64,000 bases of DNA from an uncultured Elusimicrobia bacterium (lineage in GTDB: Bacteria; Elusimicrobiota; Elusimicrobia; F11). Position 1 is the first letter of the stretch, and every line of letters begins with the position of its first letter. A model generated the notes under the pieces. The model saw nothing but the letters and a program-made list of their open reading frames with translations. It did not search any database and had not been told where the DNA came from. The DNA lies in the NCBI GenBank assembly GCA_964405835.1, contig CAYOPN010000004.1:4082-68081 (forward strand). The letters are read 5' to 3'. A program made the translations under genes and the position numbers. This document shows, in pieces, positions 2,494-59,638 of the stretch.

Positions 2494-3858
<1,365 letters not shown>

Positions 3859-11211: not shown

Positions 11212-11538
11212 ATGAAAATTCGTTACCTCTTAAGCGCCATCCTGTTTCTCGCATTCTCCTCTCAAGTTTTCGCCCTCCAAATTTCAGGCCCTGCCGAAAT
11301 CAGCAAAAAAGAAAAAGCGGTCATCACGATCACGCTTGCCGCCAACGAAAGCAAAGACGGGCTTCACTTTCACGTCACGACGCGCGCCAACGGGACTGTC
11401 GAAGCCCCGATGATCTGGACCGGAAACAGCGGCCAGGTTGAATTGGAAGGACTGCCGACGGGCTCCGTGATTCTTTCGATCACGAGGAACGACGCGCGCA
11501 AACCCTTATGCACGAAGGGCATGAAGGTGTTGCCATGA
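11212..11538 (+). CDS. small secreted hypothetical protein
   Basis: An AAGGAG-type RBS precedes the ATG. It has a signal peptide LLSAILFLAFSSQVFA. Its stop overlaps the next start (ATGA). Confidence 0.5.
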   Translation: MKIRYLLSAILFLAFSSQVFALQISGPAEISKKEKAVITITLAANESKDGLHFHVTTRANGTVEAPMIWTGNSGQVELEGLPTGSVILSITRNDARKPLCTKGMKVLP

Positions 11539-39441: not shown

Positions 39442-39450
39442 GTACCAATC

Positions 39451-39518
39451 CTCAATCATCAAGCATCAAACTCTCAATTAATTTATTGGAATTTGATGCT
39501 TGAGAATTGATGATTGAG
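39451..39518. repeat. AT-rich long imperfect hairpin in the tldD-pmbA spacer
   Basis: ctcaatcatc+aagcatcaaa (39451-39470) pairs with tttgatgctt (39492-39501) and gatgattgag (39509-39518). That gives two 10-bp stems separated by a 7-nt bulge. Confidence 0.5.
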
Positions 39519-39535
39519 AATTAACAAGGACAAGA

Positions 39536-40837
39536 ATGCTAAAGGAAATATCAGAGAAATTAAACTCTGCTCCGCTAAGCGGATGGCAGGTGCGTTGGAC
39601 GCACAAACAATCCCACCAGTCGTTCATCGCGCTCTCGGAATTGGAATGCCGCAGGCTCGTCGACACCGAATCCTGCATCGTTTCGATTTATAAGAAGAAA
39701 CCCTCCGGCGCGCTCGGCATGGCCAGTTTCAAAATTACTCCGGCCAACCTTGATCATTGGGACAAGGAGTTTCAGCAAGCATTGTTTGCGGCCGATCTCG
39801 TAAACAACCAGGCATTCGAATTGGCCGAGCAGCCGAAGTCACTTTCCAACGTTGAAATCAAAGAAAAGGGACTTGGATCCCAAACACTGGCCTCCTGCGA
39901 GGACCGTCTGCGCGACGCCGTTGCGAAAGAAAATGGAATCCGGCTTTCCGCGGCCGAATTTTTCGTCGATCAAATCGAGACCCGGCTTCTAAATCACAAA
40001 GGCCTCGACGTGTCGCAGGAAGAAACATTTTTGCAGACCGAATTCATCTTGCTCGCGCGCGACGGCGACCGCGAAAACGAATACATCAACCGCACCACGC
40101 GCCGCTTCTCACAAGATTTTGACCTGGAGGGAGAGACCTCCCAAAGCGCCCGGTTCGCCCGCGACGCCACGCACGCCGCGCTGCCGAAGACCGGAACATT
40201 CCCAGTCCTCTTATCAGAGGAGCCGCTTGATCAGCTTTTTAACCCGCTCATCGCCCGCTCGAGCGCGCGTCTAAAATACAACAAGATGATGAACGCCGAA
40301 CTCGGCCGCAGCGTGGTCAATGAAGGCGCTGTCAAAGGGGACAAGATCACCATCTGGTCGAACGGCACCGTCGATCGCGCGGTCGGCTCCAACCGCTTCG
40401 ATTCTTATGGGACACCAATGGGTCGCGTAAATCTCATAGAGAAAAACGTGCTCAAAACGTACTTGGCCGATAAACGTTACGCCGATTATCTTTCGGTGCC
40501 CGTCACGGGGGAACTTGGAAATATTGAAGTGGAGGCCGGAAGTGTTCCTTTTAAAACGTTGAGTGACGCGGCCAGCGGGAACGGAAAACCGATTTATCAC
40601 CTGCAGGCCTTCTCCGCGTTTGAACCCAACGCGATCACCGGCGCGTTCAGCGCCGAGATTCGGGCCGGTTATGAAATCAGCAAAGACGGCGTTCGCGCCA
40701 TCAAAGGCGGCTCGGTCTCGGGCGTGCTCCAACGCGACATCCTCAATTCTTGGCTCTCCAAAGAACGAGTCCAACGCGAACGCGCGTTGGTGCCGCAGGG
40801 AATATTATTTTCCAACCTTACCATCGCCGGCGCGTAA
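39536..40837 (+). CDS. pmbA: PmbA/TldE-family protein (TldD partner)
   Basis: TldD/PmbA-fold C-terminal blocks are present (AITGAFSAEIRAGYEI...IKGGSVSG). It lacks the HExxxH, as expected for PmbA. Confidence 0.8.
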   Translation: MLKEISEKLNSAPLSGWQVRWTHKQSHQSFIALSELECRRLVDTESCIVSIYKKKPSGALGMASFKITPANLDHWDKEFQQALFAADLVNNQAFELAEQPKSLSNVEIKEKGLGSQTLASCEDRLRDAVAKENGIRLSAAEFFVDQIETRLLNHKGLDVSQEETFLQTEFILLARDGDRENEYINRTTRRFSQDFDLEGETSQSARFARDATHAALPKTGTFPVLLSEEPLDQLFNPLIARSSARLKYNKMMNAELGRSVVNEGAVKGDKITIWSNGTVDRAVGSNRFDSYGTPMGRVNLIEKNVLKTYLADKRYADYLSVPVTGELGNIEVEAGSVPFKTLSDAASGNGKPIYHLQAFSAFEPNAITGAFSAEIRAGYEISKDGVRAIKGGSVSGVLQRDILNSWLSKERVQRERALVPQGILFSNLTIAGA

Positions 40838-44068: not shown

Positions 44069-47000
44069 ATGAGAATGTCCTTCTCACGTCCGGTTTTTTC
44101 CCACGATACATTCACACTCCGCCGTTCTCTCGCGTTGTGGTTGTCGGTCATTTACTTTATGACCAACGTACTTTATGCGGGGGGGCCTGCCGGCCGCCCG
44201 GCCGCAGCGCCGCTGCTTCCTCCGGTAACGCGCGCGCTACCATCTTCGGGCACGAAAGATCTGTTCCGAAAAAATCCGGTCCAAACTTACGCCAATGTGA
44301 AAATGGCTGCCGCACCCGCGGGGCCGTCCCGAAAATCGGTCACGATCATTCAAGATGTTCACGCCAACGCCGACGCACAAAAGAACATCGCCAACATCAT
44401 CGGTGTCCTCGAAACGCAGACACCGCGAGTGATCGGCATCGAAGGCGCTTCCGGGTTCCTGAATTTCGGGCCCTATCGCCAATTGCCGCGCCAAGAAATC
44501 GTCCACAAAACCGGCGCAAAATATCTCGAGACAGGGAAACTTCTCGGTTCCTCCTACGCCGCATTGACCCACAGCGGCGCTCCTTCGCTGTTGTTTGGAA
44601 TTGAGAATCCCAATTTGTACCGGCGGAACGTGGAGGCGACACTGGAAGCCGATAAGGACCGCCCGGCCACGCTGCAATGGCTGGAACAAATGGGAAAGCG
44701 GAACGCGGCGGACAAGCTCACATCCTACGGTCCCGCGCTGAAAAAAATCGATCACCACATGCGCGCTTTCGCGCGCGGCGAATTGTCGCTCGGTGATTAT
44801 GTCGGACGCTTGATGGAATTCCACGATTTGCCGTCGTCGATGCCGCTATTGACGTTTCACGAGGCGGTCAAAATGGAGAAGCGACTCGACTTCGCCCTCG
44901 TGGAACGGGAACGCGCCGAAGCGCTGGAAATATTGACCCGGAAAATGCGGCCCGAAGAACTCAAAGAATTGGTCGATGCTTCGATGGCCTTTCAAAAAGG
45001 GGAGATTAGTTCCGGCGAATTTTACCGGCATTTGAAAATGCTGCTGACCAAGCATGACGTGATCAATGACAACCGGCGGACCCTTGGAGATTACTTGCAA
45101 TACGTGGCGCTGGCCGAGTCGATCAAAGCCGATGAGCTTCTGAAAGACCTGAACGCTTATGAATCCCAAATCGTAAAGGACCTTGCGACCACGTCCGAAC
45201 AGTCCCGGATCGCAGCGGAATCAAAATGGCTGTCGCTCGCGCGCAAACTCGTGAATTTCGAGCTGACGCAGGATGAGTGGATGGAATACAACGCCCTCAC
45301 CCCAGCCCTCTCCCTGAAGGGAGAGGGAGAACTTGCCTCTTTTGAGGATTTCTATCGGATCGCTGATGCTCGCAACGGCGCCATGGTTGAAAATCTACTT
45401 CGCGCGATGGGCCGGAAGAATTGCGCCGACGGCATTCTCATTGCCGGCGGGTTTCACGCCGATGGCCTTGTAGATCTATTAAATAAGCGTGGCGTGGCTG
45501 TGACAGTGTTGACGCCCAAAATTTCCAAATTGACCCAAGGATCGAAGCCGCTCGAGTATCTCACGATTTTCCAACGCGAAAAAACCCCGTTGAGCCGCCT
45601 GTTCCACGGCCAAAAACTTTTCTTGGGCGCTATCGATGGTCTGGCGCCGGGCGCGATGCTCGTCCCCGCCAAAAATATCGGCGATCAATTCCGTGACGAT
45701 TTAAAAGACGCCCTTCAAGATGCTGGCGTAGACGAGGCCCTGGTTGACCCGGTACTGGACTTTCAAAAAATAAAAGAACGCATTCGGCAGAAGTTTGGGC
45801 CGGAACCGATGGTCACTTCCCGCATCGGTCATCGAGGAAAACAAAAGGACCCGGTTGAACTGGTCGATTCCATCTACAACACGCCGCTTGAACACCCACT
45901 GACTAAAGCGCTTTCCCGGCTCCAGCAATCGAACCCCAAAAATTACGCGACACTTGTCGAAAAAATATCCATCAATGGCACATTGCAAATCTATTGGGCC
46001 AAAAACCTGCCGTCCGCGGCCGGGCTGTTTTCAATGCAAGAAGAGATTGAAGGGAAAATAATCACTCTGACAGGGCTGTTGTTGGACAACGACGCGCGCC
46101 CGGTGCTCGAAGCGGCAGCCAAAGGAAAATCCGCACTTCAAAAAAAGGCGGTGGAGGACCTTCTCTATTTGCTGTTGGTCCATGAAGCCGCCGAACTTGC
46201 CACGCGCGGCGGTGATGAAACCTTGACTCCCAATTTGGTCAACGAATGGAAAGCTACACTTGAAGAAATCCAGCACTACTATATTCCGCCGCTCAAATTC
46301 ATCAAAACAACCATTCAAACCATTCATAGAGGGCCTTTTGAAGCGCTCTTGCGAAAACTGGATCGCGTCGACCGAAAATCAAAACGCTACAGCCGAACGT
46401 TGACGCTTTACAATTTGCTTCGGGAAAGCACTATCGAGGAAATGCCAAAGGTAGTTTGGGATTACCTTATCAAAGAACCGGAATTCGCCGGACTGAAAAG
46501 GTCCGAAAAAATCTTTCCCGAAGCCCCTGCAAAAACCAAAGCGTTACCGAAAACAAAAAAACGGGTCAATCGGAAAAGGAAATTCGAGATCTCGTTTCCG
46601 CTGAAATCAAAAAAACGGACCAATCCGAAAATTCTAACCAGGATCATTTCCTCGCGCCTCGGATACAAGAGTGTGGCGCCGGAAGGCCCAGTGACACCGG
46701 TGGATATGCTGGAGATCGAGGATATTGGAGCGCATATCAAAGTTTCTCTCACACGGCTGAACCGATTCGACCCGGAATTGTACCGCGTTTTTCTTGAGCG
46801 AATCACGTTCAACGGCCATCCGCAAATGTATTGGGCCGACAACCTCCCGTCCGCGGCGGGCGTGTTCTCAATGGAGGATCCGGATAATCCCGAAGGCGCC
46901 CCAATCACTGGTTTCCTGATCGATTCGGCATTGCGGCCTTTCGTTGAGCCAATCGAAGCAGGCAATCGAGATCGCAATTTCGCGCGGATCAACCTCATGT

Positions 47001-50000
47001 TTTTGTTGCTGGTCCATGAAGCTACCGAATTATCAGTGCGCAAAGACGGCGAAACCATCACGCCGAACCTCGTCGCCGAGGTGAAAGCCATACTGAAAGA
47101 AGCGGACGCGTACCGCTACATCCTCGGCGAGGTTGAAAAAAACGATTTAAAAAAATTGCTTCGGGAAATTGCGGACACCGAAATCGGCATGCCCGACCGG
47201 TTCACGCAGGTATTGCAATTGTGGGACCGCCTCGCCGATCCCGAGCTCGCCAAAGAAATCATTTTGGGAGAGCTGGTCGAATTGATTCTCAACGCCGGCG
47301 ACGTGACGTTGAAAGGGTGGAAATCAGTCAAAGAATTTGTCGATGATTTCATGGGCCGGCCGGATCCGCTCGAACTTGGTGACGTGATCGGATTGAGTCG
47401 CGAAGGAACGTTTTCTTTTAAGAAACACCACAACCACATGAAGATTTCTCCGGATGGAAAGAATTTGTTGATTGCTGACAGGGATGGATGGACGCTATTG
47501 GTTCCGAGCGATTTCGAACCCGGCACCAGCTATGAAACCCCTTCCATTCGCGTTGGAATAAAAGTGGACGACATTGCATTCTCAGCCAACGGACGCATGG
47601 TCGCCTTTGCGCATGAAAACGGATATGTGACGTTGGGAAAAATCGGCGTTCAGACCAACCGCAGCTCCCCAATTCCAATCGAAGAGGTCACGTCATCAAA
47701 AATAAATGAAGATGGCGTTCGAAAAATACTTTTCACGCACGACGATCATTATCTGATCGTGTTTTCCAATTCCGGCTGGGTCAGCTTCCATGCGGTGATA
47801 TGGGACCAGGAAAAAACATCCATAACCGAGTTGAAAGCCCCCTCTATCTCCTATCAATTGGGTCAAAACTTCAGATGGTGGGACATGGCCGCTTCTCTGG
47901 ATGGAGAAACTCTGGTGTTCGGCGGAGAATCTCTTGTGCACGACGGCCCTCTGAACAAGGGAAAGGTTGTGGCCCTAACGCTTTTACGAGAACCCATGAA
48001 TGGAAAGATCCGATCATTTCAAGTCAAATGGTCTACCCCCATAAATGTGGCCATCCATAAAATCGCCATCTCTCCCGACAACCGGCTTTTGGCACTGAGA
48101 GGAGGCGATGAAATTTGGATCGCCGACGCCCCGCATGCCAAGAATATGCGCAAGGCCCCATTGCAAGGACAAAGAAGCCCCACGCCGATGTTCCTTTCCG
48201 ACAACCAGACACTCGTTGTGGAGAGTGATTTTGGGCATGTGGAAATTTTCCACCTTTCCCGGACTGGCCAAGATTTGAAAGAAGTAAAAAAAGTCGCCGG
48301 CCGCACCATCGGAATGCGCATTGGAGACATCGCGGTCTCACCAGATCAGTCTCATTTGTTTGTGCTCGATTACAACGATGAGGTCATCAAATTTGACTTG
48401 AAACGCGCCCACGAGCGCACCACCTCAGGGCCGGCAGGCCGGTCCAACGACGATCTTCAGGAAGAGATCCGAGACCTGCTCTTGATGCTGGAAGATTGGG
48501 AAACGCAGTTAACGCCTTACTATTTCACTGAGGATCATGGTAAAAAACCACTCTTGTCATCCATTATCGATTCCCACATCGCGACTCTGCTTGATTTGTT
48601 GGCGGTCTTTCCAAAACCCGATGCGCCAACGGACGAAGAGAAAATTCAAAAATTTCCAGAAATTTTAACGGGACTTCTCATGCCATTCGAGACCCCAACA
48701 AGGGACGCGAACGTGCAGCCCCGTCAGCGGCTTAAAGTAAAAGTTATTTTAAAAGTGATGGCCGACCTTTTATTAGAACAGGAAGAACCATGGGAAGCTG
48801 ATTTGAGCCGTATGGATGTCACTTTCATCGAGAAGGTCATGCAAATTTTTCTTCTCGAAGTCATTCGAATCATGACGGAAGAAATGAAAAATACGGACGC
48901 AAAGACATTCGAAACCCACCTCGACGAATTCATTGACCCGCTTTATCCCTATAGCATGCGAGGACCTTTGAAAAAGAAGGTCCTCAATCAATTCAATAAA
49001 CAATTTGCATCGCCCTCTCACACCCATTTGCTGACCGAGCTCCCGCCGGCTTACGGGCGCGGGCGGGCGCCGCACAGAGAAAAAGGTGGCATCAACGAGA
49101 AAATCGCGGCCGCGTTTGATCGCGGGGACGCGATCGTGATTGATAACAGTGAGCATCGACGATTGGGGCAAGCGCTGAAGGCGGCCGCGGCGCAGCAGAA
49201 AGACGCAACGCTCAAGCTTCCGGAGCTGATTGCGTTTTTCAATAAAACCCAGGTGGTGTTGGTCCAATCCCCAACCGCGATCCCCGGTCTTTATATTCGC
49301 GGCCCCGACGATTACGCGGTGGCCCATTTCGGCCACTACAAAGGCCGCAACAGCATCTTCATCGATACCGACGTCTTTAACTTCCTCAAAGAAAATCCCG
49401 CCCAACTCCCCGCGCTGCTCTTCTACGAATTGGCCAAAGTGGCCGGCCATGATCAGGGCCTGGCCGAAAAAATTGAGGCCGCCATCGCCGGCAAGGAACT
49501 GTCGGCCGCCGTCCAAGGGTTCATCGAGGAAAAAATCGAAGCGCATCCGACCCGCTCCAACGTAATTGCCTACTACGTGGCCCGCGAAATCATGATGACA
49601 GCTCTGATATCCGGCAACGCCCACGCCTACCGCCGCGCGCTCGAAGAATGCGCGGCGCAAGCGAAATTGGCGGAAGAAAAATTGGATGGGCCGGCCGAGG
49701 ATGTTTTGTCGCCCATTGTGCGGTTGCTGCGCTGGACCGACAAGTTGCTGTTCAATAATAAAGGAATCGGCGACGACCTTGAGCTGGTCCGCGTGCAAGA
49801 AGAACAACTCACAAAAGCCGAGAAAAAAATCATCGCAGAAGAAACGGACATGTTCCTCGAAGCGCTAGGGTTCGATGAAGAACTCCAAAAGGACCTGGCC
49901 CGAAAAATTAAGTTGATCACCTATCCGCTCACGATGCTCAACATGATGCCGCATTCGATCGAAGGGATCCGGTTCACTCCGGCAGCGCTTAAATCAGTGG

Positions 50001-53000
50001 CGGAGTTGTTCAATATGTTTGCGCTGTGCCAAACGAACGGCATGGGCGGCATGGTCATGTTCAGTGGCATTTTGGAAAAAGATCTCACCATTCAGCTTCT
50101 CCAAACCGGCAACCTGTCGTTTTTCAAAGCGGCATTTCTGCATGAAGTGACCCATTATTTGGCATTTCAAAACGCGCTTCCATTTGACGGCGGCCATGAA
50201 ACCATCACGCAAGCGATCTCAACCGCTGTGTTATTGGTCGACGGCGGCGTGCCAGGACTAATGGAACCGCTCGGCGATCATGCGGAATCTAAAAAAATTC
50301 AAGGTGATTTGGTCGCGTTGGCTGAGAAGAGGGCCGGAAGCGATGCCGTACCACCCAATCAGGCGGGAATCACCAACATTGTGCAGGCTTATTTGCGCAA
50401 ACATGCCCCCGACGTTCTAAAAGGAACTCCCGCGCAGGTTCAAGACCAGATACAGCGAATGAGCGGCGTTTATCTGGGCGCTTTTGCCTGGGCGCATTGG
50501 AAAAAAGACAAAGAAATCAATGTCTACAAATTGATTATTGATTATGGAAAACGCCACTTGCCGCGCGTCCGCAATGCCGATTACCGGCGGAATTTGACCT
50601 ATCGCGATAGGCTCCTTATCGATGAATTGATCCGTGAAAAACTCGCGCCCGTCGCGCAAGTGACGCTGCCCGACGCGCAAGTCCGGTTCGTTCCGCGCTC
50701 GCGCCGTGACCTTGAAAAACCCGGCAAAGGAACGTGGAATTACGAGCGATTGCCCGATCACAAGCTCCATTACATCCCCTGGGACCTGATTGAATACGGA
50801 GAAGACGCCTCGGTCGGCCTAACACTTCAGGAAATCTTCCGTTCGAAGTTTTCCAGCGAAGACGTGATCGAAGAAGATTTCAATAACCTCTATTTCCGGC
50901 TGCTTTTCGGCATTGCCGAAACCAACCGGTTTGTGGCCCACGGGCTTTCTGAAAACCCGGGCCGCGTCGAGGAAATAGAAGCGTTCTATCGCAAGAAATT
51001 GCGAATCATGGATTTGGAGATTGAGAAAGAACGCATGGCCGAGAAATCCCAGTTCGTCCAATTCCTCGACGGCCTCTTGTACGCGTTGATGATGACCAAG
51101 GACGAAAAGGAAATCGTCCACGACCCGCGCGTCACCGATACGGAAGTGAAAGCCGCGCTTGATAACGCGATCCCGATCCTTTTCGGCGCGGTGGCGATGG
51201 ATAAACAAGGTTTCTATGAGGTTGTGCGCGATGAGGTTTGGCCGGCCGTCCAGAAATTATTGGAGCAGGACCTCGAGAAACTTAAACGGTCTGAAGAGGA
51301 AAAGCAGGCCATTAACGACATGCTCGAAAAAGGCGAAATCGAAATCGCCGATCCCGATGAAGAGATGATGAAGGGGAAATCAAAACCAAAACCCGGCGAC
51401 AAAATAAAGATCTCGTTATCGTCGGACGGCGAAGGTGATTTCGACATGGACGATCTGTCCGAAAAAGCCCGGGAGAACCTGCAAAAGGCCATCGACGAAC
51501 ATTTGAAGAAAATGAGCGCAAAGGAACGCGAGGAACTTGCCAAGAAAGCCGGCGCGAAAGCCAAGCAGGAGATGGGCAAGCAAGCGCGCGAAGCGGCCGG
51601 CGGAATGTCGGACGTGACCGGCGAAAGACGCGGCAAACCATCCGGCAAAGGCAAACCGCAAGGAAGCGGAAAACCCGGAGGAAATCTCGAGCAAGACGTT
51701 AAAGACCTCCATGATCTCGCCGATCAAATTGAAAAAGAAGCCGGCGCCGTGGAGCGTGCGGCCGAAGACGCCCAAAAGAACGCGGGCAAAGCAGGAACGA
51801 AAGCCGGCGCGATTGACCGCCAAGGCGGCGGCAACAGCGCGCAAGGACAAGGCATTAACGATTCGGTCGAGGAATTGATTGAGAAATTAAAAGAATTGCG
51901 GGAAAAAGCGCGCCGTTTCCAAGACAAGGCGGAGGAAATCGGCGGCCATTCCGATGATTTGAACGATGGACTGGAAGGGGAGAAATTGTCGGACAAAGCG
52001 CAGGACTTGCGGGACAAGATGCGCGACAAATCCGACGCAATCGAACGACTTGGCCAGGAATTGAACGACAAGGCCGCCGAAGCCGACGAAATCGCGCACG
52101 AGAGCGCGGCCCAGGGCGAAAAGCTTAAAGAAATGCTCGACATGGACCCCAAGCGCGTCGACAGCATCAAGGGTCATGCGCAAGATATTCAAAAGAAAAT
52201 CAATGAAGTCCGCGAGAAGCTTAATCAAGTCCGCAAAGACGCCGAAGAGGCCGTGACGGCCTCCGAGCAGCTCAGCAGCGAGTCCGGCGAACTGCAAGAA
52301 CAAATTAAGCGCGACACACCAATCGTCAGCGAGGGAGAGGAAGACGAAAACAATCCAAACGTGGGCGACCCGGGGGGCCACATTTCAGCGCGTAAAAAGG
52401 AGCCGCGCGACAACAATGAACGCAAGCGGGTCATGGCCAAAGACAAAAAAGGAACGAGCGGCCCGAAACACTCCATGGACCCGAAAATAAACGAATTAAT
52501 TAAGGAGTATTTGGAAGACAACGAGGACATTGATTTCACATCGGCCGCAGAGCGCGACCTCGAACAAAAGCAGGCGCTCGATCAATACACCGGCCTCACA
52601 GAAGGACAGCGGGTCGCCTACAACAAGATCCGCGACATTTCCGCGGAATATGAGTCCACGCTCAGAGAAGAAATTTTAAACGCGTTGGACGCCACCGAAC
52701 GCTCCGACATGATGCGCCGTCAGCGCAAAGGCCGCATCGATCCGCGCCGCCTGTCCATCGTCGAAACCGGCATCACCGACCCGTTCCAGATCAAACGCGA
52801 AGCCAATAAAAAGAAGCTGCGGATTTCAATTTTGATCGACGTAAGCGGCAGCATGTATCATGACCCGAACAACTTGGACCTGCAAAATCCCACCAGCGCC
52901 ATGCTCGCTTCCTCGAACCGGATAAACAATGCCATTAAGGTCGTCATTCTGTTCCTCGAAGCGTTCCGCGAAGACCCGCGCGTGGAGATCGAAGTCGGGG

Positions 53001-56000
53001 CCTTCGCCTCAACGCAAAAGATATTCAAAAAGTATGAAGACCCCATCACCGATGAATTAATCTACAAACTCATTGATCAATTGCTAAATCACAATCTGGG
53101 TCAGGATAACTCCGACTTGGCGGGCCTTTCCATGATTGTTATTTCCATGCGTGAGCGCGAAGCCAAAGAAGGCCCCGCCGCCAAATTGGTCACTGTCGTT
53201 GCCGACGGCGGCATCCATCCTTCCGACCGGCCGGGAATTGAGCAAATCCTTACGGAAAATACCGACATCGCGTTCATGGCGTTCGGGATCGGGTCCCAAG
53301 CGGCCGATGTGAAAAACGCTTACGCGCCGTTTGGCAGGAGTGTTAACGCTCTCTCAAAGCTGGTGGAAGAAACGGGCGAATGGCTGAAAGAGCAAGCCGA
53401 CCGCCTGATGAGCTTCGAATTTCTTTTGCTCATCGGGACCGTCGCGCTCTTCTTCAACAGTGGGCCCTTCAAACTGGGGATGCCTCTTTTGATGATGATG
53501 TTGTTGTTCGGATCCGTATTGGGCGTTGTCGTGCCGTCGATCTCCATTACCAAGAATCTGGACACAGAAAATTTTGAAGTGGTTCCCAGTAACGGCGACC
53601 GTTATTTGCAGGTCAAAAACGGCAAATACCCGACCTTCAAAGCGAAAATCAACGGCGAGGGCATCAACATTCCCAACGAAGAAATGCTCGAGACCGAAAC
53701 CAACGTGAAAGACGTGGTCAAAATCATCAAACGCGTCCAGCGGCAATATCTGGACCGCAGCCCGCTCTACATCGAAGGAGAGGCCGGCACCGGAAAAAAC
53801 AAAAAAATCTATTACTCGGCCAAGTTGATGCGCAAATCCGTGCGGTTCATGGCGCTGCACGAAGACGTGCACGAGGATGACCTGGTGGAACGTCGCGGCG
53901 TTGGCGAAAAAGAGCATGGAAAAACCGATTGGATCTTACAGCCGCTGGTAGAAGCCATGCGAAACGGTGATTGGATTATCTTTGACGAAGTGAACAAAGC
54001 CAAACCGGAAGTGATGGCACGACTGAACCAAATCGTGCAATCGCGCCGCGTCATGTTGCACGACGGAACAGAAGTCACCGCGAAAGAAGGTTTCGCGATC
54101 ATCATGACCGGAAACCCGCCGCCCAGCGCCAACGACGCCGAGGTCTACCACGTCAACAAACAGTCCGCCGAAATGCTGGACCGCCTTCGTGGCATGCGCA
54201 TCGGATATCTGCCGGACAAAGAAGAGTTGCAGCTGTTGCTTTCCATATTGATGAAGAGACGGGGTTATACCGACGTAAAACAAATTCCCGCTGCGGACCA
54301 AAAATTCCTCAAGGAATTGATCGATGCCGCCAATTTGATCCGCGACAACTACGAGGGGCTGGACAAGGCCACCGGCCGCAGCCGCCGCGGCAAGATGATC
54401 GCGCGCCCGCTTTCAACACGCTCTCTGGTCAACATCACCAAGCGGCTGGCTGATTTTCCAGATGATCGAAAACGGCCGCGGTCGTTGGTGCGGCGGTTTT
54501 ATTCCTACGAATGGAGCAAACCGGCCCAAATCAAAGCAGTGGAAGCGGCGCTCGACAACAAACTGACCGAAAAAGATGAAGACCTGATATTCAACGACAA
54601 AGATTTGAAGGGGCCTGAATACACCGAAGAAAAAGGCGTCCGTTACCTGAAATTTAAAGGAATCAAAGTGAAAGCCGGCCCCGGAGCGCCGGCGAAATTG
54701 GCCGACATTCCGCTCGACATGCGGGTGACATGGACCGAGACCAACCTTCGGTATCTCTATGAACTAATGATGGACTTCGGGCAAGAGAACCACATGCTGC
54801 TGATCGGTGAGGCCGGCACCGGCAAGGACCTACTGGCGGAATATCTCTGTTACGCACTGCACGGACCAAAATTTGACACCTTCGGTGTAACGCGCAACGC
54901 GATGGCGGAAGATTTGGTGGCGTATCTGGGCCTTGGTGAAGGAACGAAAATGGACGAGAAAGGAATGCTGGTCGCCGCGGGGAAACACGAAACCGGGATT
55001 GTTCCGGCGTATGTGGTACGCGCCATGGAAGCCGGACGACCCATCATTCTGGACGAAATCAACAAAGGCAAACCGGAAGTGTTTGCCGTGTTGAATAACA
55101 TCCTCGAATACAAATGGATCGATCTGGCCAATGGGAGGCGCGTCCATGCCCAACCCGGATTCATGATTATCGCCACCATGAACCCTTCCAATAAAAAGGC
55201 CTATCTCGGAAACTTTGACCTCTCCGGCGAATTTTTGGACCGGTTCTCGGTCCACAAATTCGATTACTTGAAACCCGGAGAAGAAGCCACCATCCTGTCG
55301 CAATTTAACGATGACCTTATCGCTGAGGATGGGCTCCGCTTCGGAAAAATCAGAAAAGAAGTCATCAACCGGCTGGTGGCAACGACGAACGTTCTCAGAG
55401 AAAAATACCGGAACAACCGGCTTCCGCACCCGGTGTCGATGCGCGCCGAAAAGCGCATGATCGTGACGCTGGCCGAATATCCGGAAGAATACAAGGACTT
55501 AAACGAATTGCTGGAAGAGTGCTTTGTGTTCAGCGATCCGGTCCATCGCCAAGCGGTCTTGGAAGCGGCCAAAGCGGAGAAGCTCGGCGAACTCAAAGAC
55601 ATCATTGAGGTCCGGATTGGCGTGGGCGATGCCGAAATCGACGCCGTGTTGGAAAAAATAAAATCGGAAAGCGAGAAAGGACATGCACCCGATGAATGGA
55701 CACAGCAATGGATCCAGCTGTTGCGACGGTTGGATGGACTGCTGGGGAAAAAATCGGCTGCCAAAAAACTGACTCCGGAATTGCGCTCCAAGACCAAGGC
55801 CATTTTGGAACGAATGGTGGCGACACTGCTCCCGCCCCCGCTTGCAGGACGCGCGCTCTTGGGAGCGTTAATCAATCATGTCCGCTCCCGGCTGGATGGA
55901 GTGGAAGTACCGGAGCTTCCGGAAATAACGTCGGAAATGAGCCATGCCGAATGGGGGAATGTACTCCAAAATCTAACCGTGATAATCGACTTTACGCTCC

Positions 56001-59000
56001 TGCCCGAAGATTTTGAGAAAAAAACTCTCATAGAAAAATCGGCTGGTGTGATTGTGGTGCCAGACCGGAAGCCAACGGCGCGCATGGAAACGATCGGCGG
56101 CGCCACCTTCCTTGTCGTCAATGGCGTGGCCAACGCCGCATCGTTTAACGAAGCCGCCTCCTTGGCGCTTCAAGTTTACGCCAAGGCAAAAATGGGGGAG
56201 GGGAAGGGCGTTGAAAAATTCCCGTTTTATTACCGGGTTCTTAAAGCCGCTCACCGCCAAAAGCCGTCCGATGCGCGAATGCTCGGCAAAGGATTCACGG
56301 AGTCCGGCCTTCCCAAGGAATTCATCGACAACTTTATTGAACTCAATGATTCGTCATGGCGTCAGAAAAACGCGATGCTCGTGAACCGAAAACGCAACGC
56401 GTTGATGGTCCAACTGGATTCCCTGAAAATTTCCGATCAGGAGAAAAAAGCCTTGTTGATAGCCTTGAAAATCTTTTCCGCCTCTTACGATCCACTTACC
56501 AAGGACGTCGACGCGCGTTTATCTAAATTAACCGTTGTTTCCTCTCGATTAGGGTTCAAGAAAGAAAAACCGGCGGGGGCGGTCGACCCAATCGGACGCG
56601 TTGATGAAAGTTCGCTTGCCGCGGCGTTCGAGAAGGCGCTTGAACGGTTTAAGGCCCAACATGCCGATTTATACGAGGAGTTATTGCTCCGCATCACACC
56701 GCCCGGGGAAAACACCGTCCCCCAAATCTATTGGGCCAACAATCTCCCATCGGCCGCCGGCATTGTCGAAATCGAAGGCATCACGGGGTTGATGTTCGAC
56801 CCGGGAATGAAGAGCATTCTTAAAGCGGAACTGCTCTCGAAAGACAAGCTCCGCGTTATGGCGGTCGTGAATCTCTTTTATCTGCTGTTGGTGCATGAAG
56901 CGATGGAGGTGTCGGACCGCAAAGAAAACGACACGCTGCGGCCGAATTTTCTCAGCGAAATAAAAGCGGTGATCGCCGAAGCGTACGCTTTTTCCAGGTT
57001 GAGCCTTGATGAAAACCAAGCGCTCGGGCGCCTTTACGAGAAACTGGATGCCGGGAAGGGCCACCGCGGATTTGGGCTGTTATGGGATTTATTGAACAAG
57101 TTCAAAGGGGCCGCCATCGAATGCAAAGCCGGGCTGATGGCCCTAATGGACCTGCTGATGATCGACCCCGATTACGCCGGTGCCGAAAAATCCCCGGACA
57201 AGATACGGGCCGAATTAAAAGCGTCGCACGACGTAGACGAGCCCCGGAAAGTTTCGACGGGAACAGAACCTGATTTCGAAAAAATATTTCAAGACACACT
57301 CCCGGGCGGGGTGGCCGCTTTTTCATTGTCGGAGGAAACCGACGAATACGTGGTGGCCGGCCCCGATTATTTCCGGCTTTACTCAAACCACAGGAGCATC
57401 ATCGATCAAAACTTGAGGGACTCCCAATTGATGCACGAGGTCAAAGTGGGGAAAAACATCGCGGCCATTAAGCTCCAACGCGATAAGAACCAAATTCTCG
57501 TCGCTTGCAGCGATGGAACATTGTTGGGTTATCAACTCCTGGCAAACGAAGAAGGGGCCATAACCGGCATCAAAAAAATATTTAAACAGAACCAGAACCC
57601 TGGGATTTTATTCCTATTGCCTTTCTTTTCTCCGCGGCTTATCGCTACTTTCTCCCCGAACGGCGGAAGCGTGGTGTTTGCCAATCCGCGGACCGGCAAG
57701 TTCTTTATAGTGGGCATCCCGTACCCCATAAGTGGTTACCACCATACGAACATCATTTACAAGGGCCGGGCAGGGGAGGGGATCATCAAAATCGCCATTG
57801 CCCAAGATGGGCGCACCGTTGTGTTTCACAGCGCCGCCAAAAACCAGCTGGACATCCTGAGTATCAATCTAAGCCAAGAGCTACGTTTCCACAACGTGAT
57901 GGAAATGGCGACTGATGAGCTAATTTACGAACCGGTATTTTTATCTGGAAACTCCCTCGCCATACGTTTACAAACATCCTATGGAGAGTTCCTTCGAGTT
58001 TACGCGCCACTGTTTATTTTCAATAACGCATGGCATGCCAACTTCAAGGAGCACAAATTCCATGAAGATCCCACGAAGCTAAAGTTCTCTCCCGAAAACC
58101 CGAAAATCCTTCACATCACCGCGGGTGATGTTCAGTTATTTCAACTCTCACATGGAGCATACCCGCTCATGCGTCTGAGCGAAGCCCATACAACAGCGGC
58201 AGCACTCTTTCCAACCGAAGAAGCCATCTTTGTCGGCAACGACAACTCCTTCTCAATATGGCGGATCGGAAAAAAGGGGAACATCAGTGGCAAGGTGGTT
58301 TCCTCCCGCCTCGGGTTCAAGAAAGAGAAACCGGCGGGCGCGGTTGAACCGGTCGGGCGCGTTGCTGAAAGCGCGCTTGCCGCGGTGTTCGCGAAAGCGC
58401 TCGAACGGTTGAAGTCGCAGCATCCCGATTTGCACGGAGCCATGATCAAACGCATCACGCCATCAGGTGAAAATGCGGTCCCGCAAATCTACTGGGCCGA
58501 GAATCTGCCATCGGCCGCCGGTGTGATTGAAATCGACGGCCTGACCGGCGTGATGTTCGACAGTGAAATGAAACCGGTGTTGGAAGCGTTCCAGGGCAAT
58601 GCTCAAGAAGAACGTGCGATTGAAAATCTTTTCTATCTGCTGTTGGTCCACGAAGCCAAAGAAACCGCATCCCGCAAACCCAATGAAGCGATTACGCCGC
58701 ACATTCACCATGAAATGTCCGCGGTGTTGGAAGAGGTGCGAAGCTACTTGAAACTGACGATGGGTGAAGTAAAAACGCTCGACCGGTTGTTCATAAAGCT
58801 CGATGAGGGAAAACTGCACGAACCGTTCCGATCGGTTATCAGGATTTATGACCTATTCACCGCGACGACCGATCTCCTCAAAGAGGGATGGGCGAAGCTT
58901 TTGGCCCTCATCAAGCAGGACGATGAATACTCAGGACAAGAACTGTTGAAAGCCAAACCGTCGTGGTCGGCCACGGTTGCAAGCGCCATTGCCACCAACC

Positions 59001-59638
59001 TTGGACCGGCCAATTTGGATGTAAGCCGTCTCATGTGCGAGGGGAGCTTGGACAAAGCGGTATCTGTCGATGAGTACCGTGATGAAATCCAAATTTTGAC
59101 GGTCCATGATGAGAACGATCTAAAGTGGATTGGTCCGTTACTGCAACTGGTGCAGAAACACCGCTATGCCACTGGTTTTTCTTCCCGACTGCTTATTCTT
59201 AACACGTCCGGTCTGCAGCAATACGGAAGCTCCGAACATTACAACGCGTTAATTGGCCAGGCAATCGAGTTGGAATTGGCCGAATATCCGTATTGGAAAG
59301 ATTTTGCCATGGTTCTCAATAACAAGACGGATTTCACCGAGCTTCGCTATATCGCGGGCCTTCGTAATGACGTGGTGGTTCCATCTCTTGTACGGGAGAC
59401 TCTGAGAAATCGACACGGATCGAACCCTAACTCGTTCTGGGCGGGGTGGGTGAGGGGGAATAGGCCAGCGGAACGTTATTTCGTAACGGGAACTGATGTC
59501 GAATTTGAACATGACGATCTGGGTAGGGTGGGCGTGGTTTGGCTGCAGTCGGCAATGGATCAGGCCACGCCGCTCAGTCTTTCCGGCTACATGGACATGT
59601 TCCAAAAAGCGTTCTTGGCTGCCTCCAAAGCGGCGTAA
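44069..59638 (+). CDS. giant multidomain protein (5,189 aa): ChaN/Tiki-like domain, repeated novel modules, two beta-propellers, HExxH region, charged tract, vWA, TM hairpin, two AAA_5 ATPase domains
   Basis: A single uninterrupted ORF of 15,570 nt. Recognisable motifs are listed in the sub-features below. Confidence 0.9.
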   Translation: MRMSFSRPVFSHDTFTLRRSLALWLSVIYFMTNVLYAGGPAGRPAAAPLLPPVTRALPSSGTKDLFRKNPVQTYANVKMAAAPAGPSRKSVTIIQDVHANADAQKNIANIIGVLETQTPRVIGIEGASGFLNFGPYRQLPRQEIVHKTGAKYLETGKLLGSSYAALTHSGAPSLLFGIENPNLYRRNVEATLEADKDRPATLQWLEQMGKRNAADKLTSYGPALKKIDHHMRAFARGELSLGDYVGRLMEFHDLPSSMPLLTFHEAVKMEKRLDFALVERERAEALEILTRKMRPEELKELVDASMAFQKGEISSGEFYRHLKMLLTKHDVINDNRRTLGDYLQYVALAESIKADELLKDLNAYESQIVKDLATTSEQSRIAAESKWLSLARKLVNFELTQDEWMEYNALTPALSLKGEGELASFEDFYRIADARNGAMVENLLRAMGRKNCADGILIAGGFHADGLVDLLNKRGVAVTVLTPKISKLTQGSKPLEYLTIFQREKTPLSRLFHGQKLFLGAIDGLAPGAMLVPAKNIGDQFRDDLKDALQDAGVDEALVDPVLDFQKIKERIRQKFGPEPMVTSRIGHRGKQKDPVELVDSIYNTPLEHPLTKALSRLQQSNPKNYATLVEKISINGTLQIYWAKNLPSAAGLFSMQEEIEGKIITLTGLLLDNDARPVLEAAAKGKSALQKKAVEDLLYLLLVHEAAELATRGGDETLTPNLVNEWKATLEEIQHYYIPPLKFIKTTIQTIHRGPFEALLRKLDRVDRKSKRYSRTLTLYNLLRESTIEEMPKVVWDYLIKEPEFAGLKRSEKIFPEAPAKTKALPKTKKRVNRKRKFEISFPLKSKKRTNPKILTRIISSRLGYKSVAPEGPVTPVDMLEIEDIGAHIKVSLTRLNRFDPELYRVFLERITFNGHPQMYWADNLPSAAGVFSMEDPDNPEGAPITGFLIDSALRPFVEPIEAGNRDRNFARINLMFLLLVHEATELSVRKDGETITPNLVAEVKAILKEADAYRYILGEVEKNDLKKLLREIADTEIGMPDRFTQVLQLWDRLADPELAKEIILGELVELILNAGDVTLKGWKSVKEFVDDFMGRPDPLELGDVIGLSREGTFSFKKHHNHMKISPDGKNLLIADRDGWTLLVPSDFEPGTSYETPSIRVGIKVDDIAFSANGRMVAFAHENGYVTLGKIGVQTNRSSPIPIEEVTSSKINEDGVRKILFTHDDHYLIVFSNSGWVSFHAVIWDQEKTSITELKAPSISYQLGQNFRWWDMAASLDGETLVFGGESLVHDGPLNKGKVVALTLLREPMNGKIRSFQVKWSTPINVAIHKIAISPDNRLLALRGGDEIWIADAPHAKNMRKAPLQGQRSPTPMFLSDNQTLVVESDFGHVEIFHLSRTGQDLKEVKKVAGRTIGMRIGDIAVSPDQSHLFVLDYNDEVIKFDLKRAHERTTSGPAGRSNDDLQEEIRDLLLMLEDWETQLTPYYFTEDHGKKPLLSSIIDSHIATLLDLLAVFPKPDAPTDEEKIQKFPEILTGLLMPFETPTRDANVQPRQRLKVKVILKVMADLLLEQEEPWEADLSRMDVTFIEKVMQIFLLEVIRIMTEEMKNTDAKTFETHLDEFIDPLYPYSMRGPLKKKVLNQFNKQFASPSHTHLLTELPPAYGRGRAPHREKGGINEKIAAAFDRGDAIVIDNSEHRRLGQALKAAAAQQKDATLKLPELIAFFNKTQVVLVQSPTAIPGLYIRGPDDYAVAHFGHYKGRNSIFIDTDVFNFLKENPAQLPALLFYELAKVAGHDQGLAEKIEAAIAGKELSAAVQGFIEEKIEAHPTRSNVIAYYVAREIMMTALISGNAHAYRRALEECAAQAKLAEEKLDGPAEDVLSPIVRLLRWTDKLLFNNKGIGDDLELVRVQEEQLTKAEKKIIAEETDMFLEALGFDEELQKDLARKIKLITYPLTMLNMMPHSIEGIRFTPAALKSVAELFNMFALCQTNGMGGMVMFSGILEKDLTIQLLQTGNLSFFKAAFLHEVTHYLAFQNALPFDGGHETITQAISTAVLLVDGGVPGLMEPLGDHAESKKIQGDLVALAEKRAGSDAVPPNQAGITNIVQAYLRKHAPDVLKGTPAQVQDQIQRMSGVYLGAFAWAHWKKDKEINVYKLIIDYGKRHLPRVRNADYRRNLTYRDRLLIDELIREKLAPVAQVTLPDAQVRFVPRSRRDLEKPGKGTWNYERLPDHKLHYIPWDLIEYGEDASVGLTLQEIFRSKFSSEDVIEEDFNNLYFRLLFGIAETNRFVAHGLSENPGRVEEIEAFYRKKLRIMDLEIEKERMAEKSQFVQFLDGLLYALMMTKDEKEIVHDPRVTDTEVKAALDNAIPILFGAVAMDKQGFYEVVRDEVWPAVQKLLEQDLEKLKRSEEEKQAINDMLEKGEIEIADPDEEMMKGKSKPKPGDKIKISLSSDGEGDFDMDDLSEKARENLQKAIDEHLKKMSAKEREELAKKAGAKAKQEMGKQAREAAGGMSDVTGERRGKPSGKGKPQGSGKPGGNLEQDVKDLHDLADQIEKEAGAVERAAEDAQKNAGKAGTKAGAIDRQGGGNSAQGQGINDSVEELIEKLKELREKARRFQDKAEEIGGHSDDLNDGLEGEKLSDKAQDLRDKMRDKSDAIERLGQELNDKAAEADEIAHESAAQGEKLKEMLDMDPKRVDSIKGHAQDIQKKINEVREKLNQVRKDAEEAVTASEQLSSESGELQEQIKRDTPIVSEGEEDENNPNVGDPGGHISARKKEPRDNNERKRVMAKDKKGTSGPKHSMDPKINELIKEYLEDNEDIDFTSAAERDLEQKQALDQYTGLTEGQRVAYNKIRDISAEYESTLREEILNALDATERSDMMRRQRKGRIDPRRLSIVETGITDPFQIKREANKKKLRISILIDVSGSMYHDPNNLDLQNPTSAMLASSNRINNAIKVVILFLEAFREDPRVEIEVGAFASTQKIFKKYEDPITDELIYKLIDQLLNHNLGQDNSDLAGLSMIVISMREREAKEGPAAKLVTVVADGGIHPSDRPGIEQILTENTDIAFMAFGIGSQAADVKNAYAPFGRSVNALSKLVEETGEWLKEQADRLMSFEFLLLIGTVALFFNSGPFKLGMPLLMMMLLFGSVLGVVVPSISITKNLDTENFEVVPSNGDRYLQVKNGKYPTFKAKINGEGINIPNEEMLETETNVKDVVKIIKRVQRQYLDRSPLYIEGEAGTGKNKKIYYSAKLMRKSVRFMALHEDVHEDDLVERRGVGEKEHGKTDWILQPLVEAMRNGDWIIFDEVNKAKPEVMARLNQIVQSRRVMLHDGTEVTAKEGFAIIMTGNPPPSANDAEVYHVNKQSAEMLDRLRGMRIGYLPDKEELQLLLSILMKRRGYTDVKQIPAADQKFLKELIDAANLIRDNYEGLDKATGRSRRGKMIARPLSTRSLVNITKRLADFPDDRKRPRSLVRRFYSYEWSKPAQIKAVEAALDNKLTEKDEDLIFNDKDLKGPEYTEEKGVRYLKFKGIKVKAGPGAPAKLADIPLDMRVTWTETNLRYLYELMMDFGQENHMLLIGEAGTGKDLLAEYLCYALHGPKFDTFGVTRNAMAEDLVAYLGLGEGTKMDEKGMLVAAGKHETGIVPAYVVRAMEAGRPIILDEINKGKPEVFAVLNNILEYKWIDLANGRRVHAQPGFMIIATMNPSNKKAYLGNFDLSGEFLDRFSVHKFDYLKPGEEATILSQFNDDLIAEDGLRFGKIRKEVINRLVATTNVLREKYRNNRLPHPVSMRAEKRMIVTLAEYPEEYKDLNELLEECFVFSDPVHRQAVLEAAKAEKLGELKDIIEVRIGVGDAEIDAVLEKIKSESEKGHAPDEWTQQWIQLLRRLDGLLGKKSAAKKLTPELRSKTKAILERMVATLLPPPLAGRALLGALINHVRSRLDGVEVPELPEITSEMSHAEWGNVLQNLTVIIDFTLLPEDFEKKTLIEKSAGVIVVPDRKPTARMETIGGATFLVVNGVANAASFNEAASLALQVYAKAKMGEGKGVEKFPFYYRVLKAAHRQKPSDARMLGKGFTESGLPKEFIDNFIELNDSSWRQKNAMLVNRKRNALMVQLDSLKISDQEKKALLIALKIFSASYDPLTKDVDARLSKLTVVSSRLGFKKEKPAGAVDPIGRVDESSLAAAFEKALERFKAQHADLYEELLLRITPPGENTVPQIYWANNLPSAAGIVEIEGITGLMFDPGMKSILKAELLSKDKLRVMAVVNLFYLLLVHEAMEVSDRKENDTLRPNFLSEIKAVIAEAYAFSRLSLDENQALGRLYEKLDAGKGHRGFGLLWDLLNKFKGAAIECKAGLMALMDLLMIDPDYAGAEKSPDKIRAELKASHDVDEPRKVSTGTEPDFEKIFQDTLPGGVAAFSLSEETDEYVVAGPDYFRLYSNHRSIIDQNLRDSQLMHEVKVGKNIAAIKLQRDKNQILVACSDGTLLGYQLLANEEGAITGIKKIFKQNQNPGILFLLPFFSPRLIATFSPNGGSVVFANPRTGKFFIVGIPYPISGYHHTNIIYKGRAGEGIIKIAIAQDGRTVVFHSAAKNQLDILSINLSQELRFHNVMEMATDELIYEPVFLSGNSLAIRLQTSYGEFLRVYAPLFIFNNAWHANFKEHKFHEDPTKLKFSPENPKILHITAGDVQLFQLSHGAYPLMRLSEAHTTAAALFPTEEAIFVGNDNSFSIWRIGKKGNISGKVVSSRLGFKKEKPAGAVEPVGRVAESALAAVFAKALERLKSQHPDLHGAMIKRITPSGENAVPQIYWAENLPSAAGVIEIDGLTGVMFDSEMKPVLEAFQGNAQEERAIENLFYLLLVHEAKETASRKPNEAITPHIHHEMSAVLEEVRSYLKLTMGEVKTLDRLFIKLDEGKLHEPFRSVIRIYDLFTATTDLLKEGWAKLLALIKQDDEYSGQELLKAKPSWSATVASAIATNLGPANLDVSRLMCEGSLDKAVSVDEYRDEIQILTVHDENDLKWIGPLLQLVQKHRYATGFSSRLLILNTSGLQQYGSSEHYNALIGQAIELELAEYPYWKDFAMVLNNKTDFTELRYIAGLRNDVVVPSLVRETLRNRHGSNPNSFWAGWVRGNRPAERYFVTGTDVEFEHDDLGRVGVVWLQSAMDQATPLSLSGYMDMFQKAFLAASKAA
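44330..45520 (+). other. ChaN/Tiki/TraB-superfamily-like domain of the giant ORF
   Basis: The N-terminal block VTIIQDVHANADAQKNIANII and the C-terminal block ARNGAMVENLL...GILIAGGFHADGLVDLLNKRGVAV resemble the GE-H...RD/N-MA...GxxH pattern of ChaN/TraB/GumN proteins. This is from memory and has not been searched. Confidence 0.4.
45878..46300 (+). repeat. 'YWA-NLPSAAG / LLLVHEAxE' module, copy 1
   Basis: LQIYWAKNLPSAAGLFSM...LTGLLLDNDARPVLE...LLYLLLVHEAAELATRGGDETLTPNLVNEWKATLEE. Confidence 0.7.
46640..47130 (+). repeat. 'YWA-NLPSAAG / LLLVHEAxE' module, copy 2
   Basis: SSRLGYKSVAPEGPV...PQMYWADNLPSAAGVFSM...ITGFLIDSALRPFVE...LMFLLLVHEATELSVRKDGETITPNLVAEVKAILKE. Confidence 0.7.
47438..48410 (+). 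other. beta-propeller 1 (WD40/PD40-like blades)
   Basis: Recurrent blade-like units: ISPDGKNLLIADRDG, IAFSANGRMVAFAHENG, ILFTHDDHYLIVFSNSG, ASLDGETLVFGG, IAISPDNRLLALRGGD, IAVSPDQSHLFVLDYND. Confidence 0.55.
50141..50155 (+). other. HExxH motif (HEVTH) in the central helical region
   Basis: FFKAAFLHEVTHYLAF was read in frame (codon 2025). It sits at a position comparable to the HEAxE of the repeated modules. Confidence 0.4.
51262..52545 (+). other. ~430-aa D/E/K-rich, coiled-coil-like low-complexity tract
   Basis: EEEKQAINDMLEKGEIEIADPDEEMMKGK...KAQDLRDKMRDKSDAIERLGQELNDKAAEADE... It lies directly N-terminal to the vWA domain, as in CobT/NorD/midasin-type proteins. Confidence 0.7.
52808..53340 (+). 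other. von Willebrand factor A (vWA) domain with a MIDAS motif
   Basis: KKLRISILIDVSGSMYHD; the DxSGS motif is at 52838-52855. Downstream blocks VTVVADGG and IAFMAFGIG follow. Confidence 0.7.
53414..53545 (+). other. internal hydrophobic hairpin (one long or two short TM helices)
   Basis: FEFLLLIGTVALFFNSGPFKLGMPLLMMMLLFGSVLGVVVPSI. Confidence 0.6.
53705..54225 (+). other. AAA_5 (MoxR/CobS/NorQ/dynein-related) ATPase domain 1
   Basis: Walker A GEAGTGKN at 53777-53800, Walker B WIIFDEVNKAKPEVMARLNQIVQ, and FAIIMTGNP. Confidence 0.75.
54745..55285 (+). other. AAA_5 ATPase domain 2
   Basis: Walker A GEAGTGKD at 54806-54829, Walker B PIILDEINKGKPEVFAVLNNILE, and FMIIATMNP. Confidence 0.75.
56534..57010 (+). 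repeat. 'YWA-NLPSAAG / LLLVHEAxE' module, copy 3
   Basis: VVSSRLGFKKEKPAGAVDPIGRV...PQIYWANNLPSAAGIVEIEGITGLMFDPGMKSILK...LFYLLLVHEAMEVSDRKENDTLRPNFLSEIKAVIAE. Confidence 0.8.
57265..58285 (+). other. beta-propeller 2 (putative)
   Basis: Blade-like units include AAFSLSEETDEYVVAGPD, IKLQRDKNQILVACSDGTLLGY, TFSPNGGSVVFANPRTG, IAIAQDGRTVVFHS and FSPENPKILHITAGD. Confidence 0.45.
58295..58770 (+). repeat. 'YWA-NLPSAAG / LLLVHEAxE' module, copy 4
   Basis: VVSSRLGFKKEKPAGAVEPVGRV...PQIYWAENLPSAAGVIEIDGLTGVMFDSEMKPVLE...LFYLLLVHEAKETASRKPNEAITPHIHHEMSAVLEE. Its first ~130 nt are visibly similar to copy 3 at the nucleotide level. Confidence 0.8.

Follow-up and report, generated by a model that had tools for sequence, protein, structure and literature searches.

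A very rare, undescribed domain family with a putative HExxE metal site in giant multidomain bacterial proteins

Contig CAYOPN010000004.1 of assembly GCA_964405835.1, derived from an uncultured Elusimicrobia bacterium, carries a giant open reading frame (ORF) whose product contains, next to an ATPase core and several unassigned regions, four copies of a module that is the subject of this report. The stretch of DNA analysed (the window) comprises 64,000 nucleotides and corresponds to positions 4,082 to 68,081 of the contig; the locations of the module copies and of the other features of the giant protein are compiled in Table 1. Our analysis shows that the module represents a real, undescribed and very rare domain family, and that it occurs almost exclusively in the giant multidomain proteins of one lineage, Candidatus Omnitrophota.

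Table 1. The giant ORF and its recognised or proposed domains, with positions in the window (aa, amino acids; nt, nucleotides).
Feature	Residues (aa)	Window position (nt)	Strand	Remarks
Giant ORF		44069..59638	+	5,189 aa, uninterrupted; holds all four module copies
N-terminal domain	~85-520	44321..45628	+	common to the module-bearing relatives P0001, P0004, P0006 and P0026
Module copy 1	579-815	45803..46513	+	TSRIG leader, YWAKNLPSAAG, HEAAE; putative site intact
Module copy 2	857-1094	46637..47350	+	SSRLG leader, YWADNLPSAAG, HEATE; putative site intact
Region after copy 2, probable beta-propeller	1100-1500	47366..48568	+	Pfam Beta-prop E 1e-3 to 0.07, sub-cutoff; PDB 3fgb E 0.023
First proposed degenerate copy	1650-1840	49016..49588	+	hhalign register as proposed, P=0.027
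Separate HExxH..LP..E domain (second proposed degenerate copy)	1895-2135	49751..50473	+	conserved in six giant relatives
VWA domain	2920-3077	52826..53299	+	DVSGS motif, like a metal ion-dependent adhesion site (MIDAS), at aa 2924; Pfam below curated cutoff
Two adjacent hydrophobic segments, putative transmembrane hairpin	3113-3158	53405..53542	+	
Two AAA_5 (MoxR/CobS/GvpN-like) ATPase domains	3234-3360 and 3575-3727	53768..55249	+	Pfam/NCBIfam
Module copy 3	4154-4388	56528..57232	+	SSRLG leader, YWANNLPSAAG, HEAME; putative site intact
Region between copies 3 and 4, claimed propeller	4395-4735	57251..58273	+	undetectable by sequence
Module copy 4	4741-4963	58289..58957	+	SSRLG leader, YWAENLPSAAG, HEAKE; putative site intact; copy used for modelling
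C-terminal domain	4965-5189	58961-59635		25% identity, E 9e-11 to P0001 C-terminus; no family assignment

Comparison of the giant protein with itself by tiled BLAST with self-masking connected the copies to one another with expect values (E) ranging from 1e-8 to 6e-57. Hence, the four copies claimed in the original prediction exist, and their YWA codons are located precisely where it had placed them (aa 642, 921, 4221 and 4808); the HEAxE motifs follow at aa 705, 983, 4276 and 4861. The closest pair is that of copies 3 and 4, with 62% identity over 145 aa; the remaining pairs share 30-41% of their residues. At the DNA level, copy-to-copy identity is 58-69%, and in the leader segment of copies 3 and 4 as many as 14 of 45 codons differ at the third position only. 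The duplications that gave rise to the modules are therefore old, and their products have been under purifying selection. It is accordingly extremely improbable that the repeat is a product of chance, low sequence complexity or faulty assembly: the E-values reaching 6e-57, the divergence of the DNA copies with its many third-position-only differences, and the occurrence of homologues in independent assemblies together refute such an origin. The repeating unit, which had been thought to span 140-160 aa, actually comprises about 225-250 aa; the similarity runs far past the three sequence blocks by which it was initially noticed. A hidden Markov model (HMM) built from the 74 module instances described below scores all four window copies at 152-195 bits, with every family block present. 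The signature of the family consists of an S-R-L-G leader, a (Y/F)W(A)xx(M/L)PSAAG strand-loop, an hhhD strand, an LYLLLVHExxE helix, and a TP(D/N)xxxE helix start; the consensus around the putative site reads HEAtELxxRxxxxTITPDIxxE.

Pfam, NCBIfam, PHROGs, PADLOC and the PDB sequences all fail to recognise the module, and only 38 relatives were found, so that its initial description as unrecognised holds. All that Pfam and NCBIfam detect in the giant protein are two AAA_5 domains with strong scores, a VWA domain that is marginal and some weak segments of propeller type, none of which overlaps the module, and a Pfam scan of all 43 members of the alignment later used for structure prediction (A2) revealed no family matched by more than one member. 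Profiles of known non-catalytic repeat families (WD40, HEAT, TPR, Sel1 and similar) do not match the module, and the WD40 and HEAT matches found in its relatives fall in neighbouring regions. Sequence and profile searches of the PDB with the module returned noise only; a profile match to I-CreI (E 5e-5) was dismissed because it involves a tandem single-chain construct with a per-stretch E of about 1. Likewise, an origin of the module in a defence system or phage was discarded, PADLOC and PHROGs being silent. A word-indexed search of 5.8 billion proteins with the module gave essentially nothing, and HMMER, run exhaustively against 1.84 billion cluster representatives, recovered 38 proteins at E<=1e-3, with 22 of them at E<=1e-10 and seven at E<=1e-30. 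Local iteration yielded 74 module instances in these 38 representatives and the window protein. Scans of genome and metagenome contigs uncovered three loci only, two of which encode proteins already found; two loci among the GTDB species genomes belong to Ca. Omnitrophus magneticus and to an Omnitrophota metagenome-assembled genome (MAG). Two publications on giant genes of the Omnitrophota make no mention of the module.

The named relatives stem mostly from Candidatus Omnitrophota MAGs and are annotated as hypothetical protein, AAA family ATPase or repeat-containing protein; one relative labelled Deltaproteobacteria is annotated as a CAAX prenyl endopeptidase family protein. Many are giant proteins with multiple module copies. 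Judged by these relatives, an Omnitrophota genome would be the most likely source of the window as well. The layout of relative P0001 (5,634 aa) is like that of the window protein, with an N-terminal domain, modules, an HExxH domain, a charged coiled-coil-like stretch, a VWA domain, two AAA domains, further modules and a related C-terminal domain, and P0004 (5,493 aa) agrees with the window protein in its N-terminal domain, its HExxH domain and its modules. Scaffolds of two types, WD40 and HEAT, and AAA+ proteins of two unrelated classes accompany the module: canonical WD40 propellers lie beside it in P0002, P0017 and P0016, HEAT repeats in P0003 and P0020, Clp-type AAA_2 ATPases in P0028 and P0016, and AAA_5 ATPases in the window protein and in P0022. 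P0008, a 145-aa fragment, has a classic signal peptide, and within about 30 residues of it there follow an SSRLG leader and the first part of a module; therefore at least some modules are probably exported.

Four polar residues stand out in the alignment of the 74 instances and may constitute a metal site: a His (present in 56 of 70), the adjacent Glu (62 of 69), a residue four positions after the His, which is Glu in 53 and His in five of 70, and a Glu at position +21 (59 of 69). The full set is found in 51 of the 74 instances, among them all four window copies. Genuine HExxH variants occur in P0030, P0037 and in one copy of P0010. The strongest arguments from sequence for a metal site are that position +4 alternates between two metal-ligand residues, Glu and His, and that the spacing is HExx[E/H]-x16-E. 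The spacing in gluzincins is similar, namely HExxH-x18-20-E. All four window copies read HEAxE where the active-site helix of zincins carries HExxH. The +21 Glu takes, at the level of sequence and secondary structure, the place of the third zincin ligand on the next helix, of which it occupies the first turn (helix 145-160 of the model described below). No conserved His follows the module motif at the distance of about 6-10 residues at which the third His of SprT/Wss1 proteins is found.

We modelled the module with AlphaFold. A first model based on four sequences reached a predicted local distance difference test score (pLDDT) of 72.9 and gave no structural matches; the model of copy 4 based on the 43 sequences of alignment A2 attained a pLDDT of 94.4 and a predicted template modelling score (pTM) of 0.92. 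Its N-terminal half is composed of a strand (residues 26-30), two helices (37-50 and 52-62), three strands (73-77, 83-88 and 91-97) and a helix (98-107), while the half that contains the putative site comprises a long helix (111-133) with HEAKE at 127-131, the helix 145-160 with the conserved Glu148, and three further helices. In the zincin fold, a sheet is followed by a backing helix, the active-site helix and a third helix (bioRxiv 10.1101/2025.10.18.683246), and the order of elements in the predicted structure of the module fits this description.

The SSRLG sequence preceding copies 2-4 had been interpreted as a conserved linker. Its conservation is borne out, and it also precedes copy 1 (as TSRIG), but it is integral to the fold and not a linker. 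In the model of copy 4, this leader is predicted at a pLDDT of about 96, with a short beta-bridge just before S-R-L-G, and it thus belongs to the module domain. The leader Gly is kept in 58 of 60 family instances. In P0004 and P0026, modules whose site His is replaced by Arg or Lys have R-S-E-[LA]-R in place of S-R-L-G, a co-variation that hints at a contact between leader and site. The RSELR sequence occurs six times in P0004 (aa 582, 1150, 2487, 3492, 4240 and 5221), three times directly before modules and three times at other borders (before the HExxH region, between the VWA and AAA domains, and before the C-terminal domain); we estimate that six exact copies of a 5-mer are far beyond chance. 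DGG sequences are reiterated at junctions as well, with 12 of them in P0011 and one before each of the four clear leaders of P0019. Such reiterated junction motifs have the appearance that processing sites of a polyprotein would have, and they are compatible with a purely structural junction as well. A ubiquitin-like RLRGG tail, a sortase or exosortase signal, and a double-glycine leader were considered as readings of the leader and set aside: the leader has a single Gly, is internal, and its neighbour is not JAMM-, C39- or sortase-like.

Two more divergent stretches had been proposed as degenerate module copies, the second of them with a canonical HEVTH motif. Neither the HMM built from the four copies nor that from the 74 instances matches either stretch (filters off, E<=10). 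Profile-profile comparison of the module family with the first (aa 1650-1840, together with one orthologue) arrives at the register that had been put forward, though with weak support (P=0.027, probability 1.8%); for the HEVTH region (aa 1895-2135), the comparison gave P=0.4. The latter is a distinct domain without significant similarity to the module. Its H-E-x-x-H, L-P and E residues are invariant across six related giant proteins, and it has no match in Pfam, the PDB or the word-indexed protein database. The motif grammar of this domain parallels that of the module, although homology is not demonstrable, and we regard it as a putative second unclassified metallopeptidase-like domain of the same protein. 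The argument linking the module to HExxH is better served by the genuine HExxH variants of the module in P0030, P0037 and P0010.

In the core of the giant protein, an E/K/D-rich coiled-coil-like stretch, the VWA domain, a hydrophobic hairpin and two AAA_5 domains succeed one another in one chain (window 51506-55249; aa ~2480-3727). The AAA_5 assignment is strong (E 1.4e-44, two stretches, Pfam), and that of the VWA domain marginal (E 6.7e-4; 20.4 bits against a curated Pfam cutoff of 23.8). The combination of AAA_5 domains with a VWA domain that carries a MIDAS motif is the hallmark of MoxR-type AAA+/VWA systems, and it is present here. The hydrophobic hairpin is absent from the orthologue P0004. 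At their start, the proteins that share the N-terminal domain (P0001, P0004, P0006 and P0026) have a signal-peptide-like hydrophobic segment. In the giant protein, the presence of a signal-like N-terminus and of ATPases in one polypeptide is a puzzle with regard to topology. The N-terminal domain itself contains D-x-H, G-[IV]-E-G and G-G-[FY]-H motifs; Pfam is silent on it and lends no support to the resemblance to TraB/Tiki/ChaN-type proteins that we presume from these motifs. Beta-propellers had been claimed after copies 2 and 3. There is weak support for the one after copy 2, and nothing is detectable at the sequence level after copy 3. The claimed arrangement agrees with that in relatives, where canonical WD40 propellers adjoin modules.

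The giant gene is surrounded by an ordinary set of bacterial housekeeping genes, with those for TrpRS, a TldD/PmbA pair and an MBOAT protein upstream, and those for MiaA, HflX, a CDP-alcohol phosphatidyltransferase and PlsY downstream. Between the giant gene and the TldD/PmbA-like metallopeptidase pair (38065-40837, + strand), which lies about 3 kb upstream, is the MBOAT acyltransferase gene; there is no evidence of a functional tie of the pair or the MBOAT gene to the giant gene. Farther upstream, an ORF of 1,970 aa (11508-17420, + strand) without a Pfam match at E<=1e-5 is followed by genes for a FlgD-Ig-like protein and a 993-aa TPR protein. Nowhere in the window were tRNA genes detected.

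We tentatively favour the view that the module is a metallohydrolase of a divergent, gluzincin-like kind, probably with peptidase activity, that its own leader fills or shields the cleft, and that it operates inside an AAA+-driven protein-handling machine; this view falls somewhat short of being probable. In this scheme, the His and the Glu one helical turn away from it (H-E-x-x-E, occasionally H-E-x-x-H) would hold a metal ion together with the Glu at H+21 at the start of the next helix, and the Glu adjacent to the His would act as the general base. The S-R-L-G leader would pack onto the domain, within the substrate cleft or next to it, and serve as a latch or as a site cleaved in cis. In the window protein, the modules would bracket propeller-like regions and flank the VWA/2xAAA_5 core, and the polypeptide as a whole might be an ATP-driven machine for the remodelling or processing of proteins, in which the modules cleave their own polypeptide where domains join or act on clients that the propellers bring in. 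That self-processing takes place at the leader, as its sequence context might suggest, strikes us as rather improbable. Slightly more doubtful still is a wider scenario, framed from the motifs at the junctions, in which the modules would form a new zincin-like clan of junction proteases that process themselves, with Glu in place of the second His ligand (HExxE), and the giant Omnitrophota proteins would be bacterial polyproteins that are cut at S-R-L-G-type junctions into propeller, AAA+/VWA and other pieces, perhaps under the control of ATP or upon delivery to a host or prey; lineages of the P0004 type would have switched to RSELR sites recognised in trans.

Several observations weigh against the gluzincin-like view. 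The full residue set is missing from 23 of the 74 instances, and these degenerate sites are clustered in certain proteins (five of five copies in P0019, four of four in P0004, three of five in P0011, and P0026); since P0019 and P0004 keep nothing but degenerate copies, the fold can be kept when the putative site is lost. Conservation is higher for the leader Gly (58/60) than for the site His (56/70), which suggests a structural role. For the window copies, there is no match to a curated peptidase family in Pfam, NCBIfam or the PDB profiles, and no precedent for the replacement of the second His by Glu was found in the literature; mentions of 'HEXXE' there concern family M35 and CLCA1, which are known as HExxH proteins, so that these are apparently typographical errors. 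A Foldseek search of the PDB with the copy 4 model revealed no significant neighbour (best E 0.36; template modelling score (TM) <=0.26), the zincins FtsH (E 4.5), MATCAP and lethal factor appearing only at E 3-5. Among predicted viral structures (BFVD), the top match is a SprT-like protein, which is likewise non-significant (E 0.077, probability 0.89, TM 0.32/0.40 over 136 columns); a second SprT-like protein ranks ninth. These matches provide a weak lead and no proof of zincin descent. A 'VWA-like domain' protein at rank 40 may possess an N-terminal metallopeptidase domain. Hence, the zincin derivation voiced in the original prediction is weakly backed by the order of elements and by the conservation of H, E, E or H, and E, and no zincin is matched significantly in sequence or structure.

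The main rival sees in the module a domain without catalysis that serves as a junction or adaptor, be it a pseudo-zincin or an unrelated alpha/beta fold, and that clamps its own S-R-L-G leader and organises the neighbouring propeller, HEAT and AAA+ domains, with the His/Glu cluster binding a structural ion or the leader Arg. The degenerate sites and the rank of the leader Gly speak for this alternative just as they speak against an enzyme. So do the lack of a significantly matched enzyme fold, the invariable position of the module next to protein-interaction scaffolds, and the joint appearance of Arg or Lys in place of the site His and of a Glu in the leader, which resembles a salt bridge standing in for a metal contact. 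We nevertheless consider it unlikely, if by no means negligible, since four polar residues with zincin-like spacing are kept in 51 of 74 instances including all window copies, the best-conserved core residue is the Glu in the general-base position (62/69), and Glu/His toggling at +4 is typical of metal ligands. Less likely again is a metal-dependent enzyme that is neither a peptidase nor of zincin descent, for instance a hydrolase whose substrates are small molecules or parts of the cell envelope, in which HExxE...E would have arisen by convergence. Such an enzyme would account for a confident model without a PDB neighbour, for a motif that is undocumented among zincins, and for the signal peptide directly before the P0008 module, and published work connects giant proteins of Omnitrophota with predation and the degradation of cell walls (10.1101/2023.11.21.568195). 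However, the order of elements and the only near-significant structural matches point to minimal zincins, and the partners of the module are protein-handling (AAA+, WD40, HEAT) rather than carbohydrate- or lipid-active.

The Omnitrophota are uncultured, ultra-small and probably host-dependent bacteria known for very long genes, much of whose sequence is unannotated. The module is a well-delimited and confidently foldable piece of this dark matter that recurs next to AAA+ motors and protein-binding scaffolds. What is new is plausibly a module of zincin-like character that combines an obligatory leader with an HExxE site, the zincin idea itself being unproven. A truly active HExxE metallopeptidase would extend the ligand repertoire of zincin-like enzymes and provide a handle on whether the giant proteins are processed, and a pseudo-enzyme would represent a new junction or scaffold domain. 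Either way, the module merits a family entry, for which the alignment of 74 instances and the model are a sufficient seed.

Among known systems, the best though weak Foldseek matches single out the SprT/Wss1-like minimal zincins, which, together with the minigluzincins, resemble the module in being small alpha/beta domains with a sheet followed by a helix bearing H-E-x-x-(ligand) and a ligand downstream. Unlike SprT, the module mostly has HExxE and a Glu at +21 instead of a nearby third His, and it possesses an additional helix before the active-site helix, a C-terminal helical bundle of about 70 aa and the obligatory S-R-L-G leader; neither sequence nor structure scores are significant. With gluzincins of the thermolysin/M1 type (HExxH + E), the module shares, as judged from sequence and model, the His-Glu pair, a second putative ligand at +4 and, where the following helix begins, a Glu some 20 residues farther down, but its second putative ligand is Glu and homology is not detectable.

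At the level of the whole protein, the presence of AAA+ and putative zincin-like domains on one polypeptide is reminiscent of FtsH-type AAA+ metalloproteases, a purely functional analogy in that the AAA domains of the giant proteins are MoxR/CobS-like AAA_5 or Clp-type AAA_2, the module is not an M41 peptidase, and copy number and domain order differ. The self-processing cysteine protease domains of MARTX and large clostridial toxins are, like the module, protease-like domains that sit in a large protein beside junctions open to cleavage by them. In CLCA1, a self-cleaving zincin is paired with a VWA domain (10.1101/2025.10.18.683246). Folds and catalytic types differ from those of the module in all these proteins, and self-cleavage by the module is suggested by the position and conservation of its leader. 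The core of the giant protein corresponds to the MoxR-VWA remodelling pairs (CobS/T, NorQ/D, CbbQ/O and GvpN), since it likewise combines a VWA domain with AAA_5 domains, two in this case, that score best against the GvpN and CobS models, though far under the equivalog cutoffs. In contrast to these pairs, both partners are fused here in one 5,189-aa chain, with a putative transmembrane hairpin between them and the modules arranged around them.

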